From assembly GCA_963750165.1 (NCBI GenBank), contig CAVVPN010000003.1, positions 2,336,001-2,400,000 on the forward strand: DNA of 64,000 nt. Reading direction: 5' to 3'. A program made the translations under genes and the position numbers. This DNA comes from an uncultured Gemmataceae bacterium (GTDB lineage Bacteria; Planctomycetota; Planctomycetia; Gemmatales; Gemmataceae). The notes beneath the pieces are model-generated. The model did not search any database and was not told the DNA's origin. It saw nothing but the letters and a program-made list of their open reading frames with translations. Below, piece by piece: positions 54,008-58,985 of this stretch; the first letter of the stretch is position 1, and every line of letters begins with the position of its first letter.

Positions 54008-54232
54008 GGCAGGGCCTCTGGCGGGTCCGGGGTGCGCAGGGGCGACGGCGTTAATTAACGGAAACCGTGGCCGCGCAACCAGAGGGCAGGCGGCCCGAAT
54101 TCCAGGTCCGCTTTCCGGGCGCGTCTGCCTATAATGGAGGTAGCGGCAGGAGGCCGTTTCATCTCATATCATCTCACAGACCCCCCCGAACGGGCTTTGC
54201 GACGCATTCGGATAAACGCATGGGAATGCGTA

Positions 54233-55486
54233 TCAGTTAGACCGAATGCGTTGCATCGGCAGCACGTCCGGCCGCACAGCCGGTTCCGCTTCATCTTTCC
54301 AGAAGACGGGCACGATGCCAAGGGTTTCCTGCTCCTGAATCAGACAGGTGAGATTATGGCAGAGGATTTTGCAGAGCGATTCATTGATCATACCAGTGTC
54401 GCTCTTGCTGCGCACCGAGTCGCCGAACTTCCGCTTGATGGCGCTGAAGGTGGACTCGACGTTGCTTCGCTTGTGATAGTGCCGCAAAAACTCCTCGCGC
54501 TGGAACTGGAAGAAGTGGAAGGCGCGCTCGAACTGGCCGCCGACGGCGCCGGTGGCGTTGCTCTTGAACGGGATGAACGCCGCGGCGCCGCACGCGGCGA
54601 TTTCCTCAAAGTTCTCCAGCGACGCATACGCCTTGTCGGCCGACACCTCCCCGATCTCAAAGCGCCGCCGCGTCTCCTTCACCAGCGGCACGAACTGCGG
54701 ACAATCCCCGGAGTCTTTGTCCAGAATACGGACAGCGGTGACGATGTTCGTCTTCACGCCGCACGCCAGGTGGACTTTCACCCACACGCACCTGTTGCGG
54801 GTGATGCCATACTTCTCGTCCAGCCATTTTTCGTAGCGGCAGCTGCCGAAGCCGCTGCTGTCGATGGCGAAGTCCGTCTCGACCACGCGGAGCGGGCTGG
54901 CGCTGATGGCGATGAGTTCCTTGAGGATCGGCGTGAAGAAAGCATCCTCGAAAAAACTGTTCACCTTCATGCCAGGGATGGGCTTGGTGGTGTGGCCGCG
55001 CTCGTGCGCGTCGAGCAGGTCGCAGGAGAAGCGCCGCGAGGACAGGCCGCAGTAGACCTTGAAGGCCATCGCAAACACGGCGTCGCGGCTCAGGTGTGGC
55101 TTGGGGCCGGGCAGGCTGCTGGAGCGATCGCGGTCGGGCAGGCGACTGCACAGGTCCGCGAGCAGCACTTGCAGGCGGCGCTTCTCCGTGGCTTGCGCCC
55201 TGTTGAACGCCGGCCAGTCTTGCGCGTACGTCTTGCGGACGGGGATAACGTCGGTGTCGATGGCCGGGGCTTGCTCGCCGCCGTCGCGCTCGCAGGCCAG
55301 TTTCGCGGCGATGACGTGCTTGCACGGTTTGCCGGTCAGGCCGAAGTCTTCGCAGGTGCAGCCGGGCGGGATGATCGTGACTCGGTATTTGGTGGTAAGG
55401 CTGGTCTGGGAAGGAACAACCCAGGCGCTGCCGTCGTAGACGATTTTTGCACGCGCCGCGATCTCCAGGGCCTTCAGTTCACGCAT
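54233..55486 (-). CDS. DDE transposase with N-terminal SWIM zinc finger
   Basis: CTCEDF.....CKH (SWIM). FAIDSSG, WVKVH, SADKAY and Y.KRSNVESTFS.IKR (DDE, IS4/IS5 clan). Confidence 0.9.
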   Translation of the reverse strand: MRELKALEIAARAKIVYDGSAWVVPSQTSLTTKYRVTIIPPGCTCEDFGLTGKPCKHVIAAKLACERDGGEQAPAIDTDVIPVRKTYAQDWPAFNRAQATEKRRLQVLLADLCSRLPDRDRSSSLPGPKPHLSRDAVFAMAFKVYCGLSSRRFSCDLLDAHERGHTTKPIPGMKVNSFFEDAFFTPILKELIAISASPLRVVETDFAIDSSGFGSCRYEKWLDEKYGITRNRCVWVKVHLACGVKTNIVTAVRILDKDSGDCPQFVPLVKETRRRFEIGEVSADKAYASLENFEEIAACGAAAFIPFKSNATGAVGGQFERAFHFFQFQREEFLRHYHKRSNVESTFSAIKRKFGDSVRSKSDTGMINESLCKILCHNLTCLIQEQETLGIVPVFWKDEAEPAVRPDVLPMQRIRSN

Positions 55487-55859
55487 ATCCACGTCGCCAC
55501 CCTGCCTCTCGGAAGGCGCGCACGTAGAATGGAGTTGAGGGCCGCATTCGGGCGTGCAAGCGCCGGAGTGTTGTCCGCTCCAGGGGCTGTTACTAGCAGT
55601 CCCTGGAGCATCATTTCTCCGCACGATAGTACGCAATTTATCTCCACAAGTACAGGTCAGCAGTGGACTTACGAATATTTTTCCGCTGCGGAAAAACGGT
55701 CGGTTGCGCAGAAGCACGTCAGGGGCGCGTCAGGATGAGGCAGGAGCGCAGAAGGCGCCGTCTACGACCAACCGGGCGGTCTGGGGCCGGATCGCGTCGG
55801 GGGCGTTTCTGGGAAGCCGTCTGGAAAATCTGACAAGCAGCGACAACAATAGAAAAAGG

Positions 55860-55946
55860 TGGGGGTGGGGGGACTCGAACCCCCAAATGGTGAAACACCA
55901 CGGCGGGTTGGGAACCCGCTGCGTTTTCCAGTTTCGCCACACCCCC
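55860..55946 (-). tRNA. Class II tRNA with Leu-type body and CCC (Gly) anticodon
   Basis: Acceptor GGGGGTG/CACCCCC + A73. D arm GCG-AAACTGGAAAA-CGC. Anticodon arm GCGGG-TTCCCAA-CCCGC. Variable arm GTGGTG-TTT-CACCAT. T arm GGGGG-TTCGAGT-CCCCC. 3' end reads A-CC-T. Confidence 0.85.
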
Positions 55947-55958
55947 GCAGGCTGTTGC

Positions 55959-56030
55959 AGACGCGGACCCGAGTTGAACGGGCTTTCTGGACTTTGCCAA
56001 GTTCCCCGAGAAACCGTCCTCCCCCGCGTC
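55959..56030 (-). tRNA. Irregular tRNA-like gene (apparent anticodon GGC)
   Basis: Acceptor GACGCGG/CCGCGTC. T arm GCCCG-TTCAACT-CGGGT. D arm GAGG-ACGGTT-TCTC. Anticodon loop TTGGCAA on an imperfect stem. Lacks U8. Confidence 0.55.
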
Positions 56031-56277
56031 GTTTGCTACAGCATGTTGGCTGGTCGGGCAGGAGTTACCGACTCCTGCCCGATCGCCAGCCTTCACCGGT
56101 TTTTCCCAGCCCTCCCAGGTTTGATCGGGTTGACTTTTGGCCTACGGATGGGTATCTCCCCATCCGCTGTCGGACATTTCCAGCAATGTCCGACGCACGC
56201 CACGCAGACAGATCATCGACGAAAGCAAAACCTAACTTTAGGGACAACCCCCTTACCGTCAGACAGGAGAGACGGCA

Positions 56278-56624
56278 ATGACCAAGCTGCGCAGAAGGGC
56301 CACGCGACTCGCCCCGTGTCCTTCAGGATGCCCGTTGGTGTGTACGACGACTTCGTTTCGGTTGCAGAAACGAGGGGCGTGGATGTGTCGGGCTTGCTGA
56401 ATTGGATGTGCGCCGAGTACCGCCCCACGCTCTTGAAAAAGAAGGCGGATTACGAAGCCGCCATGCTGGAGGCTGCGGCGGCAAGCCTGCGCGAAAACCT
56501 GGCTTCACCCGGGGAAAGCCGCAAGGCGCTTGGCGTGCTGCGCGACCTGCTCAAACAGCTTCAGGATATGTACGCGGCTCTGTCGAAGCGGGCTCTCGAC
56601 GAGGACGAAAGACGGGCCGGGTGA
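56278..56624 (+). CDS. Ribbon-helix-helix-like DNA-binding protein (probable 1-nt frameshift at ~56286)
   Basis: AGGAG RBS before ATG 56278. Adding one G gives MTKAAQKGHATRPVSFRMPVGVYDDFVSVAETRGVDVSGLLNWM (RHH pattern). An in-frame ATG at 56328 is an alternative start. Confidence 0.65.
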
Positions 56625-56705
56625 CAGGGGACTGCGCGCCCCTTTCGGTCGGGCATTATTCATTCATCATCAACGACCGGGAGTGCGCGAACACGGCTGA
56701 ACACG

Positions 56706-56746
56706 AAACGCCACCAACCAAGGCGCCTTGGTTGGTGGCGTTTTTT
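56706..56746 (+). terminator. Intrinsic terminator-like hairpin
   Basis: aaacgccaccaaccaagg-cg-ccttggttggtggcgttt followed by a T run, downstream of the RHH gene. Confidence 0.7.
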
Positions 56747-56903
56747 CATTGGATCGAATGCGTCGCAACTCGCCCGAATGCGTCACAACCGGCGAATGCG
56801 TGGCAAAGCCCCCCGAACGACCGGGGGAGACCGGAGAATCCCTGTTCTCACCCTGGCCGGACGACCGTAAAGCAAGGACTTTGACTGCCACTGGAGGACT
56901 GCG

Positions 56904-58048
56904 ATGCTGGAAACCACCCGCCTGCTCCGCGACCTGGTGGCCCTGCCGAGCGTCAACCCGATGGGCCGCACCGGCCCCAACCCCGACTTCTTCGAGCACC
57001 GCGTCACCGCCTACCTGGAAGCGTTCTTCCGCGACCTCGGCGTGTCCTGTGAGCGGCAGACGGTGGCGCCGTCGCGCGACAACATCATCGCGCGCTGCGT
57101 GCTGCCGGGGCGCGGCGGACGCTGCTGCTCGAAGCCCACCAGGACACGGTGCCGACCGATAACATGACCATCGAACCGTTCGGGGCGAAGATCGACGGCA
57201 ACCGCCTGTACGGCCGCGGCGCCTGCGACATCAAGGGCGGCCTGGCGGCCATGCTGGCGGCGTTCGCGCGTGTGGCCCGCGAGAAGCCGGCAGGTGCCGC
57301 CAACGTCGTGCTGGCCTGCACCGTGGACGAGGAGTACACGTTTCTCGGCGTGCAGCGCCTGGTGCGCGACGGCCTGAAGGCGGACGCAGCCGTCGTCGCC
57401 GAGCCGACCGACCTCAACATCGTCCATGCCCACAAGGGCGTCGTCCGCTGGGACATCGTCACGACGGGTCGTTCGTGTCACAGTTCGCGGCCCGAGCAGG
57501 GCCAAAACGCTATCTACTTCATGGGCCGCGTGCTGACCGCCCTGGAGCAGTACGCCGGGCAGCTGCACCAGTCGCGGCAGCATCCGCTGCTGGGCCGGCC
57601 GACCCTGAGCGTTGGCCGCGTCGAGGGTGGCACCAGCGTTAACACGGTGCCGGATCGCTGCCGCATCGAGATCGACCGCCGGCTGATCCCGGGCGAGGAG
57701 CCGCTGGCGGCGCAGCAGGACGTGACGCAGTTCTTGCAGGGCCGGCTGGGGCCGGACGTGCCGTTTACATGTGTGCCGCCGTGGATGAGCAAGGGCGCCC
57801 TGAACCCGGAGGGCTCCGAGGCGCTGGTGCAGGAATTCGGCGCCGTGATCGACGCCGTGCGCGGCCGGCACACCGTCGAGGCGGTGCCGTTCGGCACCGA
57901 CGCCTCCAACATCGCCGCGGCGGGCGTGCCGGCCATCGTGTTCGGCCCCGGTGACATCGGCAAGGCCCACACCTGCGACGAGTGGGTGCCGCTCGATGAA
58001 GTCGAGACGGCCAGTGAGATCCTGTTTCGCTGGCTCTGCCAGGGTTGA
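56904..58048 (+). CDS. M20 family (ArgE/DapE-like) deacylase (frameshift near 57108)
   Basis: L.DLVALPSVNP. After adding one G: LLLEAHQDTVP, GRGACDIKG, VDEE, VAEPT, GRSCHSS, GTDA and AHTCDEW. Confidence 0.9.
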
Positions 58049-58703: not shown

Positions 58704-58748
58704 CGGTGGGCCTCCCAAAAAGAACGCGGTGCGACCCTTCGCATTCTG

Positions 58749-58850
58749 GAGCGTGTTGGCGCTCGGGGGGTAGCGGAAGTCGCCAGACTTCCGTCCGGTG
58801 CTGCTCGGAAGTCTGGCGACTTCCGCTACCCCCCGAGCGCCAACACGCTC
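58749..58850. repeat. GTAG-type REPIN, perfect 45-bp inverted repeat
   Basis: Arms 58749-58793 and 58806-58850 contain gtagcggaagtcgccagacttccg, related to the hairpin at 12400. Confidence 0.88.
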
Positions 58851-58985
58851 TGGCCGGGGTGAGGAAACCAGAGCCGGACGCCGCTCCAAAAAAAAGCGCA
58901 CCCCAGCGCAGCGTCCGGCGACCGAACGCATCTATAGAAAGACGGGAAGATCCACGTCCCCCCACGACGCCAGGAGAATCACCTC

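Follow-up and report, generated by a model that had tools for sequence, protein, structure and literature searches.

The genome of an uncultured Gemmataceae bacterium (assembly GCA_963750165.1) contains, within an insertion sequence (IS)-like transposon, a tRNA gene that combines the body of a leucine tRNA with the glycine anticodon CCC. The gene, here called tRNA(CCC), lies in a 64,000-nt stretch of contig CAVVPN010000003.1 (positions 2,336,001–2,400,000 of the forward strand), which is referred to as the window and to which all coordinates without a contig or locus name refer. In the reading that we favor, to which we assign a probability of roughly 60%, this transposon-borne tRNA is processed, charged with leucine, and delivered to GGG codons, with low-level or no substitution of leucine for glycine. 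The evidence comprises the anatomy of the gene, its location in a mobile element that has relatives in sister genera, and 19 further Leu-type CCC tRNA genes from other bacteria and metagenomes.

Anatomy and identity elements of the tRNA(CCC) gene

ARAGORN detected two tRNA genes in the window, one of which (55858–55946, minus strand) has the anticodon CCC and is labeled a plain tRNA-Gly by this program, which is the practical side of the finding. The gene matched the Rfam family RF00005 from end to end (55860–55946, minus strand) with 57.3 bits and an E-value of 9.2e-11, the gathering score being 29. It has a length of 87 nt, all 24 stem pairs are formed, and it reads GGGGGUG-UG-GCG-AAACUGGAAAA-CGC-A-GCGGG-UUCCCAA-CCCGC-CGUGGUGUUUCACCAUUU-GGGGG-UUCGAGU-CCCCC-CACCCCC-A. 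The acceptor stem (GGGGGUG/CACCCCC, 7/7 pairs) is followed by U8 and G9 and by a D arm with a 3-bp stem (GCG/CGC) and an 11-nt loop (AAACUGGAAAA) that includes A14, A15, G18, and G19. The anticodon stem (GCGGG/CCCGC) carries the 7-nt loop UUCCCAA with U33 and A37, and the variable region of 18 nt forms the hairpin C-GUGGUG-UUU-CACCAU-U-U48, in which a single unpaired U precedes U48. With the T arm (GGGGG-UUCGAGU-CCCCC) the scaffold is of the 7/5 kind (7-bp acceptor stem, 5-bp T stem), and the discriminator A73 (the A at 55860) is followed by CC-TTTTT. A strict search pattern, which consisted of a C11-type Leu D arm, the loop motif YUCCCA, a long variable arm, and a T loop, matched once in the window and in 0 of 100 dinucleotide-preserving shuffles. 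An intact, fully paired tRNA with a CCC anticodon at this place can be regarded as confirmed. The original prediction, which had been made from the DNA letters of the window, had described a paired cloverleaf with the exact 7-nt loop UU-CCC-AA and had listed A73, G2-C71, A15/U48, a Leu-style D arm, one unpaired base before U48, and the 7/5 scaffold as features of the RNA; all of these are present. Its worry about the gene end A-CC-T proved moot, since no CCA was seen after the discriminator in any of the 97 ARAGORN calls in the host genome (inspected by eye and uncounted, many of the calls being false positives in GC-rich DNA). As host tRNA genes do not encode CCA, the gene end is no defect, and the CCA would be added post-transcriptionally to all of these tRNAs.

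The best identity of tRNA(CCC) to any tRNA of the host genome is 59/87, and its identity to the host Leu tRNAs ranges from 49 to 59%. The gene is thus no recent local duplicate of a host Leu gene. The same distance makes it extremely improbable that the gene is an ordinary tRNA-Leu in which CCC results from a mistake of assembly or sequencing, an explanation that would also have to account for at least two substitutions between CCC and each Leu anticodon, for the exact loop length, and for 19 independent records with the same kind of gene.

Comparison with the tRNAs of the host, whose genome has a size of 9.6 Mb in 12 contigs and a G + C content of 66%, points to a body of the Leu rather than the Gly type. 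The host Gly tRNAs are class I molecules of 72–74 nt with GCGGG.. acceptor stems, C2-G71, and U73; the hallmarks of tRNA-Gly that the prediction had taken as established (class I, U73, C2-G71) thus hold for all of them, and tRNA(CCC) departs from them as a class II tRNA with A73 and G2-C71. A canonical tRNA-Gly(CCC) coexists in the host, and its loop, also UUCCCAA, is identical to that of tRNA(CCC), which accordingly has the C35 C36 loop of the Gly type. A leucine anticodon (NAG or YAA) is absent and CCC stands in its place, and a tertiary core of the Leu type is present: A15/U48, G18 G19, the 11-nt D loop, the 3-bp D stem, and an unpaired base 3′ of the variable stem, in the same layout as in the host Leu(CAG) gene. 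These tertiary-core elements define leucine identity. The identity set of leucyl-tRNA synthetase (LeuRS), as worked out for the Escherichia coli paradigm, includes the discriminator A73 (Asahara et al., 1993, as cited in the text of PMC3333845).

Two kinds of profile agree with this assignment. A covariance model from 19 Leu-type CCC tRNAs (R1), run over the whole host genome, scored tRNA(CCC) itself at 90.7 bits, five host Leu tRNAs at 83.4, 80.1, 78.8, 74.8, and 74.0 bits, and the Leu(CAG) of a tRNA array at 66.8 bits, compared with 56.0 bits for Gly(UCC) as the best Gly tRNA, 46.0 bits for the canonical Gly(CCC), 48.7 bits for the best Ser or Tyr tRNA, and at most 49 bits for Ser, Tyr, and all others; as the training set had been picked with the Leu-type D-arm pattern, part of this preference for Leu is a consequence of how the model was made. 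The nhmmer profile of the host Leu tRNAs matched tRNA(CCC) with 20.3 bits over positions 4–81, whereas the Ser profile reached 8.9 bits, the Gly profile 10.6 bits in the T arm only, and the Tyr profile did not match, all of these profiles being made from few genes (5 Leu, 4 Ser, 3 Gly, and 1 Tyr). The predicted Leu-like body is thus borne out by both comparisons. When viral contigs were scanned for the D-arm word UGGCGAAANUGGAAAACGC, 46 stretches contained it, and 9 of the 16 tRNAs that ARAGORN called there were Leu tRNAs (UAA, UAG, or CAA); a scan of the viral contigs for a T-arm/acceptor word gave no match.

C35 and C36 are major determinants for glycyl-tRNA synthetase. The gene could therefore be a true glycine tRNA with an extra arm that is charged with glycine through these two bases, so that GGG would still be read as Gly, and G1-C72 and G3-C70 are indeed present. 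One of the related elements described below (L232) moreover contains a tRNA in which U73 and the anticodon GCC occur on a body of class II. We nevertheless consider this explanation very unlikely, because tRNA(CCC) has A73 and G2-C71 instead of the U73 of every canonical host Gly tRNA and C2-G71, because A73 is invariant across 20 CCC tRNAs while their acceptor stems vary freely, and because the Gly profile covers nothing beyond the T arm. The analogous nematode tRNA is reported not to be charged with glycine either.

The transposon and its relatives

The tRNA(CCC) gene is the cargo of an IS-like transposon, a setting that the original prediction had overlooked, and not a chromosomal tRNA gene. 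It sits within an element of ~2.6 kb (about 54193–56811), in which the tRNA and a transposase gene lie between terminal inverted repeats (TIRs) with a direct duplication outside, as is characteristic of passenger genes (Table 1). The transposase gene is located directly downstream of tRNA(CCC) on the same strand. Its frame of 494 codons is open up to 55717, but 17 transposase homologues align only from about residue 70–78, so that the ATG at 55486 is the likely start. Subterminal repeats of the CGAATGCGT type extend inside the left end up to about 54255, three tandem repeats of this type precede the right TIR (56755–56813), and the sequence there shares 74% identity with the terminus of the related element L121. 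Since the element boundary is ambiguous by one G, the duplication comprises 7 or 8 bp. The element is single-copy in the host genome, and its G + C content of 0.55–0.63 differs from that of the flanks (0.68–0.72). Its right end is located ~85 nt upstream of an M20 peptidase gene; in an empty-site comparison, orthologues of this gene were present in relatives and the PhoD side was non-syntenic.

A further cargo gene is a small open reading frame (ORF), which has 48 homologues (56–81% identity, all unnamed, mostly 115 aa). The host copy has its initial codons (MTK) in a different frame. Weak ribbon-helix-helix (RHH) signals were obtained for the family (MazE7, 6a6x, E = 0.004), and its matches to RHH_5, CopG_antitoxin, and Arc were all below the curated thresholds. 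Searches of 200 relatives, of 400 phylum genomes, and of the viral contigs gave no homologue of the small ORF. Palindromes analogous to the possible operator upstream of the transposase gene are found at the equivalent place in the related elements L125, L238, and L234.

Table 1. Features of the transposon that carries the tRNA(CCC) gene (window coordinates).
Feature	Position	Strand	Evidence
Flanking direct repeat CCCGAACG, left copy, likely target-site duplication	54185..54192		Sequence, repeat search
Left TIR, GGGCTTTGCGACGCATTCG or GGCTTTGCGACGCATTCGG	54192-54210 (GGGCTTTGCGACGCATTCG) / 54193-54211 (GGCTTTGCGACGCATTCGG)		Repeat search, sequence
Transposase gene, DDE_Tnp_1 and SWIM zinc finger	54233..55486	-	PF01609 (E 9.1e-21), PF04434 (E 8e-9)
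Imperfect palindrome, putative operator, ~100 nt upstream of the transposase ATG	55577..55609		Repeat search
Class II Leu-type tRNA gene, anticodon CCC, A73	55860..55946	-	ARAGORN, Rfam, anatomy, R1, host-Leu profile
Small cargo ORF, 98 aa, divergent from tRNA(CCC)	56328..56624	+	G + C content at third codon positions 0.78, homologues
Perfect palindrome with 19-nt arms, possible terminator, just past the small ORF	56706..56743		Repeat search, self-match
Right TIR, 19 nt, 95% complementary to the left TIR	56793..56811		Repeat search, sequence
Flanking direct repeat CCCGAACG, right copy	56812..56819		Sequence, repeat search

Among 90 other genomes of the host's bacterial family, 28 contain relatives of the transposase; overall, 30 of 151 genomes do so, the host included. 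Related element ends begin with GGCTTTGC (L126, L131, L134), and the related elements have sizes of 3.1–3.7 kb and hence contain cargo as well. At 47 other transposase places (29 + 18 loci) that were scanned for tRNAs, four had a tRNA upstream. In the host element, L232, L238, and L234, its position is constant: the tRNA precedes the transposase by 340–440 nt and has the same orientation. Two of these relatives, which belong to sister genera, harbor Leu-type tRNAs that are homologous but differ in the anticodon. L232 (genome G466, contig 9) contains an 86-nt Leu-type tRNA with A73 and the ochre anticodon UUA, which scored 81.3 bits with R1 and is 74–77% identical to the host tRNA(CCC) with the same D arm and T arm. 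The leader and trailer of this UUA tRNA extend its acceptor stem into a 28-nt helix with 93% complementarity (L232:4697-4811). L238 (G466, contig 13) contains a Leu-type tRNA with A73 and the anticodon UCC, which scored 78.2 bits with R1; it is enclosed by inverted repeats (GGCTTTGTAAGGCAAC), and the TIRs begin with GGCTTTGT. The tRNA of L234 (G485) is a less regular class I molecule with the anticodon CGC. In L125 (G493), a class I tRNA with C33, A73, and the anticodon CCC (L125:1142-1216) is located 285 nt upstream of the transposase; no enclosing inverted repeats were found around it, and it is counted as a lead only.

The IS-borne Leu-type tRNAs are 63–74% alike mutually, compared with 49–64% identity to host Leu tRNAs. 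They constitute a separate lineage that moves along with mobile elements while the anticodon changes. The prediction had proposed to check whether homologues vary only in the anticodon. In essence the outcome was positive, as the tRNA of 74–77% identity has UUA and another Leu-type tRNA has UCC. The UUA homologue was found by pattern search after BLAST of tRNA(CCC) against 60 relatives had given no match. A loose pattern of D arm and CCC retrieved two other sequences from the 400 phylum genomes, one of them a class I Gly(CCC) and the other a non-tRNA. Gly anticodons occur in four of the six tRNAs tied to the transposase family (binomial P about 3e-4 if independent), an excess that is only a lead because the elements are related and not independent.

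Several side observations concern these elements. On the opposite strand of L232 and farther upstream lies a second tRNA of class II (96 nt, L232:5303-5398), which has U73, a D arm that is Ser-like, and the anticodon GCC, the reader of the commonest Gly codons. The transposase of L125 is 56–58% identical, a small ORF that looks RHH-like by eye lies between tRNA and transposase, and an int-alpA RNA match ~700 nt further up hints at an island of a different type. The more distantly related genome G529 contains a Leu-type tRNA with A73 and the anticodon UGG for Pro (L229:1494-1579); 13 nt separate this gene, which is likewise followed by CC and a T run, from the end of a transposase gene of the IS1595 family.

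The organization of these elements also gives rise to the main rival of the decoding hypothesis, according to which the tRNA-shaped RNA acts in cis for the transposon, for instance as an RNase P/Z site, as an insulator, or in the control of transposase output, and is no decoder; the anticodon then only must not be too harmful. The constant upstream position of the tRNA, the free change of the anticodon among homologous copies (CCC, UUA, UCC), and the long leader/trailer helix on the acceptor stem of the L232 tRNA fit such a role. A processing signal would, on the other hand, need neither the full Leu identity set nor a loop with U33 and A37, let alone the same 7-nt loop as Gly(CCC). The absence of an upstream tRNA at 43 of the 47 other transposase copies and the many among the 19 other CCC tRNAs that have no adjoining transposase in the DNA seen are difficult to reconcile with it as well. 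Taken together, a role in cis appears unlikely, although it is the strongest of the alternatives to translation by tRNA(CCC).

Leucine-type CCC tRNAs in other bacteria and other mismatched tRNAs in viral contigs

Applied to 185,579 species (one genome each), the strict pattern retrieved eight further genes, which are from Pyrinomonadaceae (two), Acidobacteriaceae, a deltaproteobacterial metagenome-assembled genome, Deinococcus marmoris, Chloroflexota, Gemmatimonadota, and Paceibacteria. It matched 11 contigs in metagenomes and none of the viral contigs. The 19 further CCC tRNAs represent 18 distinct sequences, so that the alignment, which included the host tRNA(CCC), contained 19 distinct sequences. 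A73 and seven of seven acceptor pairs are found in all 20 CCC tRNAs, and five anticodon-stem pairs in 17 of the 20. The cloverleaf was the consensus fold of the alignment, with compensatory double changes in 18 of the 24 pairs; this covariation indicates that the RNAs are maintained. Sub-groups of the CCC tRNAs at 75–95% identity span two acidobacterial classes, and the host tRNA(CCC) is an outlier with at most 69% identity to any other member.

With a looser pattern, which was positive for the host, one canonical class I Gly(CCC) gene each was found in three of four other carrier genomes tested, and none was found in Deinococcus marmoris with this same pattern. No conserved neighbor gene was found among the 19 other CCC loci, several of the contigs being short. 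Transposase or integrase genes are located near four of them (L008, L009, L010, L160), the contexts being otherwise unrelated. In two metagenomic contigs, a Leu-type CCC tRNA-shaped gene with the loop CUCCCAG and four of five anticodon-stem pairs is located between cas9 and cas1 (L151:2994-3076, identical to L154:793-875).

A wider scan of the viral contigs, in which any non-A35 anticodon was allowed, yielded 34 well-paired Leu-type A73 non-Leu tRNAs among 107 stretches. Their anticodons were UUA (n = 7), UGG (n = 7), UCC, UGA, and AGA (n = 3 each), GCC, CUA, and UGC (n = 2 each), and five singletons. Many phage and provirus contigs (L013–L119) contain long-armed tRNAs with a Leu-like D arm. 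In some of these the discriminator fits the anticodon (G73 for Asn GUU and Gln UUG, C73 for His GUG), whereas in others a Leu-type body with A73 is combined with an anticodon for stop, Pro, Gly, Ser, or Ala.

Other observations were made in the host genome and in the window. The canonical tRNA-Gly(CCC) gene is located at C1:387556-387628, and five extra 3′ halves of it are found on contig C11 (at 20779, 924335, 968844, 1032823, and 1054066); the three copies scanned (L165, L166, L168) received no tRNA call. The extra halves resemble remnants of attachment sites, as left by elements whose integration target is the canonical gene. Contig C10 contains an array of 16–17 tandem tRNA genes (C10:88560-90125) including short-armed Leu tRNAs and a class II Ser(GCU) missed by ARAGORN, which is probably of mobile or phage origin, and contig C12 a class I tRNA with the Ile anticodon UAU (C12:1257491-1257563), an uncommon bacterial AUA decoder. 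In the window, the M20 peptidase gene (56904–58048) is split into two frames near 57150, either by a frameshift or by a sequencing error; its orthologues in relatives are single frames of 386–493 aa, except for one open frame of 1534 aa (G017). A long, nearly perfect GC-rich hairpin at 58746–58855, downstream of a tRNA-Glu gene, gave sub-threshold matches to Rfam microRNA families and is probably a terminator or a repeat element.

Predicted activity, known analogues, and implications

For a transcript of tRNA(CCC) to act in translation, it would be processed and given CCA as host tRNAs are, and LeuRS, which would recognize A73 together with the tertiary core and ignore the anticodon, would charge it with leucine. 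EF-Tu would then bring Leu-tRNA(CCC) to GGG codons, in competition with the host tRNA-Gly(CCC) and tRNA-Gly(UCC). The outcome would be a low level of Gly-to-Leu substitution, or effectively none at low expression as in the case of the nematode nev-tRNAGly(CCC); low expression or conditional use would be expected, as has been proposed for the nematode tRNAs. LeuRS is one of the synthetases that do not read the anticodon (PMC11028032; PMC3333845). Since LeuRS is blind to the anticodon and its identity set is present, a Leu-tRNA(CCC) that would read GGG is the likeliest molecular activity of the gene product.

The closest published analogue is the nematode nev-tRNAGly(CCC) (Hamashima et al., 2012, PMC3333845; 2015, PMC4300185). 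This tRNA shares with tRNA(CCC) the class II, tRNA-Leu-derived body, the invariant A73, and the anticodon CCC, and a normal GGG glycine decoder coexists with it as in the host, with Leu at GGG as the predicted outcome. By the definition given there (PMC3333845), a nev-tRNA has a class II, Leu-derived body with A73 and an anticodon that is neither Leu nor Ser, and this description applies to tRNA(CCC). In vitro, the nematode class II tRNAGly(CCC) is reported to be charged only with leucine, for which A73 and the variable arm are needed (PMC3333845; PMC4300185). There are also differences. The nev-tRNAs are nuclear and are described as nematode-specific, whereas tRNA(CCC) is bacterial and transposon-borne; nematodes lack a class I Gly(CCC), GGG being read by Gly(UCC), whereas the host has a canonical Gly(CCC); GGG accounts for 0.44% of codons in Caenorhabditis elegans and for 1.27% in the host; and leucylation, demonstrated for nev-tRNAs, is predicted for tRNA(CCC).

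Several observations weigh against the use of tRNA(CCC) as a leucine-charged decoder of GGG. In C. elegans, nev-tRNAs are stated to be processed, CCA-tailed, and exported, and a Gly-to-Leu product was not detected (PMC4300185). GGG is common in the host, with a share of 14.7% among the Gly codons and 12.7 occurrences per 1000 codons (counted over 2,944 long ORFs), so that an efficiently used Leu-tRNA(CCC) should be harmful. A sigma-70-like promoter was not found at 55600–56900 in a scan limited to the sigma-70 consensus, and the cargo may be decaying, as the small ORF is frameshifted at its start. The rarity of upstream tRNAs among the related transposase loci (4/47) points in the same direction. 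The Leu preference of R1 and of the host profiles is qualified by the selection of the training set and by the small number of genes, respectively, and the constancy of CCC and of the D arm among the CCC tRNAs proves nothing, as both were fixed by the search pattern. The transposase itself was considered as a protein that needs Leu at GGG, and this candidate was rejected: its 2–3 GGG codons align with G, A, N, S, K, or R and never with Leu in 17 homologues, and no excess of the cognate codon was found in tRNA-bearing compared with tRNA-less transposases. The transposase gene of the UUA-bearing element ends in TAA, as do those of two of eight tRNA-less elements.

Some of these points would be expected of an inert passenger, that is, of a well-preserved tRNA gene that is silent or uncharged and has no effect on the cell. 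The single copy of the element, the frameshifted small ORF, whose family has no homologue in the relatives and phylum genomes searched, the result of the promoter scan, and the price that the cell would pay for Gly-to-Leu errors at so common a codon would all be compatible with silence. None of the 24 pairs is broken, all conserved core bases are kept, and the fold has been retained in homologous IS-borne tRNAs at 63–74% identity. Together with the compensatory changes in 18 of the 24 pairs of the 19-sequence set, which indicate selection on the RNA at least in others, this makes an inert passenger less probable still than a role in cis.

The original prediction had compared the gene with allo-tRNAs. 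The mismatch between body and anticodon is indeed common to both, but the resemblance is weaker than that to nev-tRNAGly(CCC), which the prediction had not named. According to Mukai et al. (2017; PMC5389517), allo-tRNAs are likewise bacterial, mostly from soil, and have a long variable arm, Acidobacteria are prominent among them as they are in the CCC set, and the authors hinted at a link to transposable elements and toxin-antitoxin systems. They differ by their 8/4 or 9/3 acceptor/T geometry and by the insertion of Ser by those tested, whereas tRNA(CCC) has the standard 7/5 geometry, A73, and a Leu-type core. The tRNAProX/ProRSx pairs of Streptomyces and Kitasatospora, in the account of PMC11415595, similarly join one identity to the anticodon of another and are candidates for deliberate mistranslation, but have a class I Pro body, oddities at A33/A34, and an adjoining dedicated synthetase gene; the loop of tRNA(CCC) is canonical and no synthetase is located nearby. 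Canonical bacterial tRNA-Leu resembles tRNA(CCC) in the D arm, A15/U48, variable-arm geometry, T arm, and A73, and is set apart by its NAG or YAA anticodon, by the low identity of the host Leu tRNAs, and by the mobile element location of tRNA(CCC).

In openly available abstracts and article passages on allo-tRNAs, mistranslating tRNAs, nev-tRNAs, and isotype mismatch, no bacterial Leu-type tRNA(CCC) was found, nor was a tRNA as IS passenger found in those on IS passenger genes. For bacteria, a 2024 review in the Journal of Biological Chemistry (PMC11415595) describes tRNAProX alone, as far as the text at hand extends. The occurrence of a bacterial 7/5 Leu-type tRNA with the Gly(CCC) anticodon of the nematode type implies that this chimera arose or was kept more than once. 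To our knowledge, sense-codon ambiguity caused by a dedicated tRNA is limited to very few systems, namely Candida and related yeasts, the nev-tRNAs (in vitro only), and the tRNAProX of Streptomyces.

The tRNA(CCC) gene belongs to a mobile lineage of anticodon-switching Leu-type tRNAs, and its location in a transposon means that it can move between genomes. Among the related elements, the anticodon varies naturally (CCC, UCC, UUA) while the scaffold is the same. Bacteria also make the question raised by the nematode tRNAs, whether such tRNAs are used by the ribosome and for what purpose, amenable to experiment, as the gene can be cloned, induced, and deleted. A more far-reaching proposal, which we regard as tentative and on balance doubtful, is that the Leu-type tRNA is functional cargo in a family of planctomycete transposons and has had its anticodon switched repeatedly (CCC, UCC, ochre UUA), and that the element would constitute a mobile module that reprograms host decoding by placing Leu at Gly or stop codons. 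If this were true, the 19 other tRNAs from Acidobacteriota, Chloroflexota, Deinococcus, Gemmatimonadota, Candidate Phyla Radiation bacteria, and metagenomes would mean that nev-type tRNAs are widespread and horizontally spread in bacteria and are no nematode curiosity.

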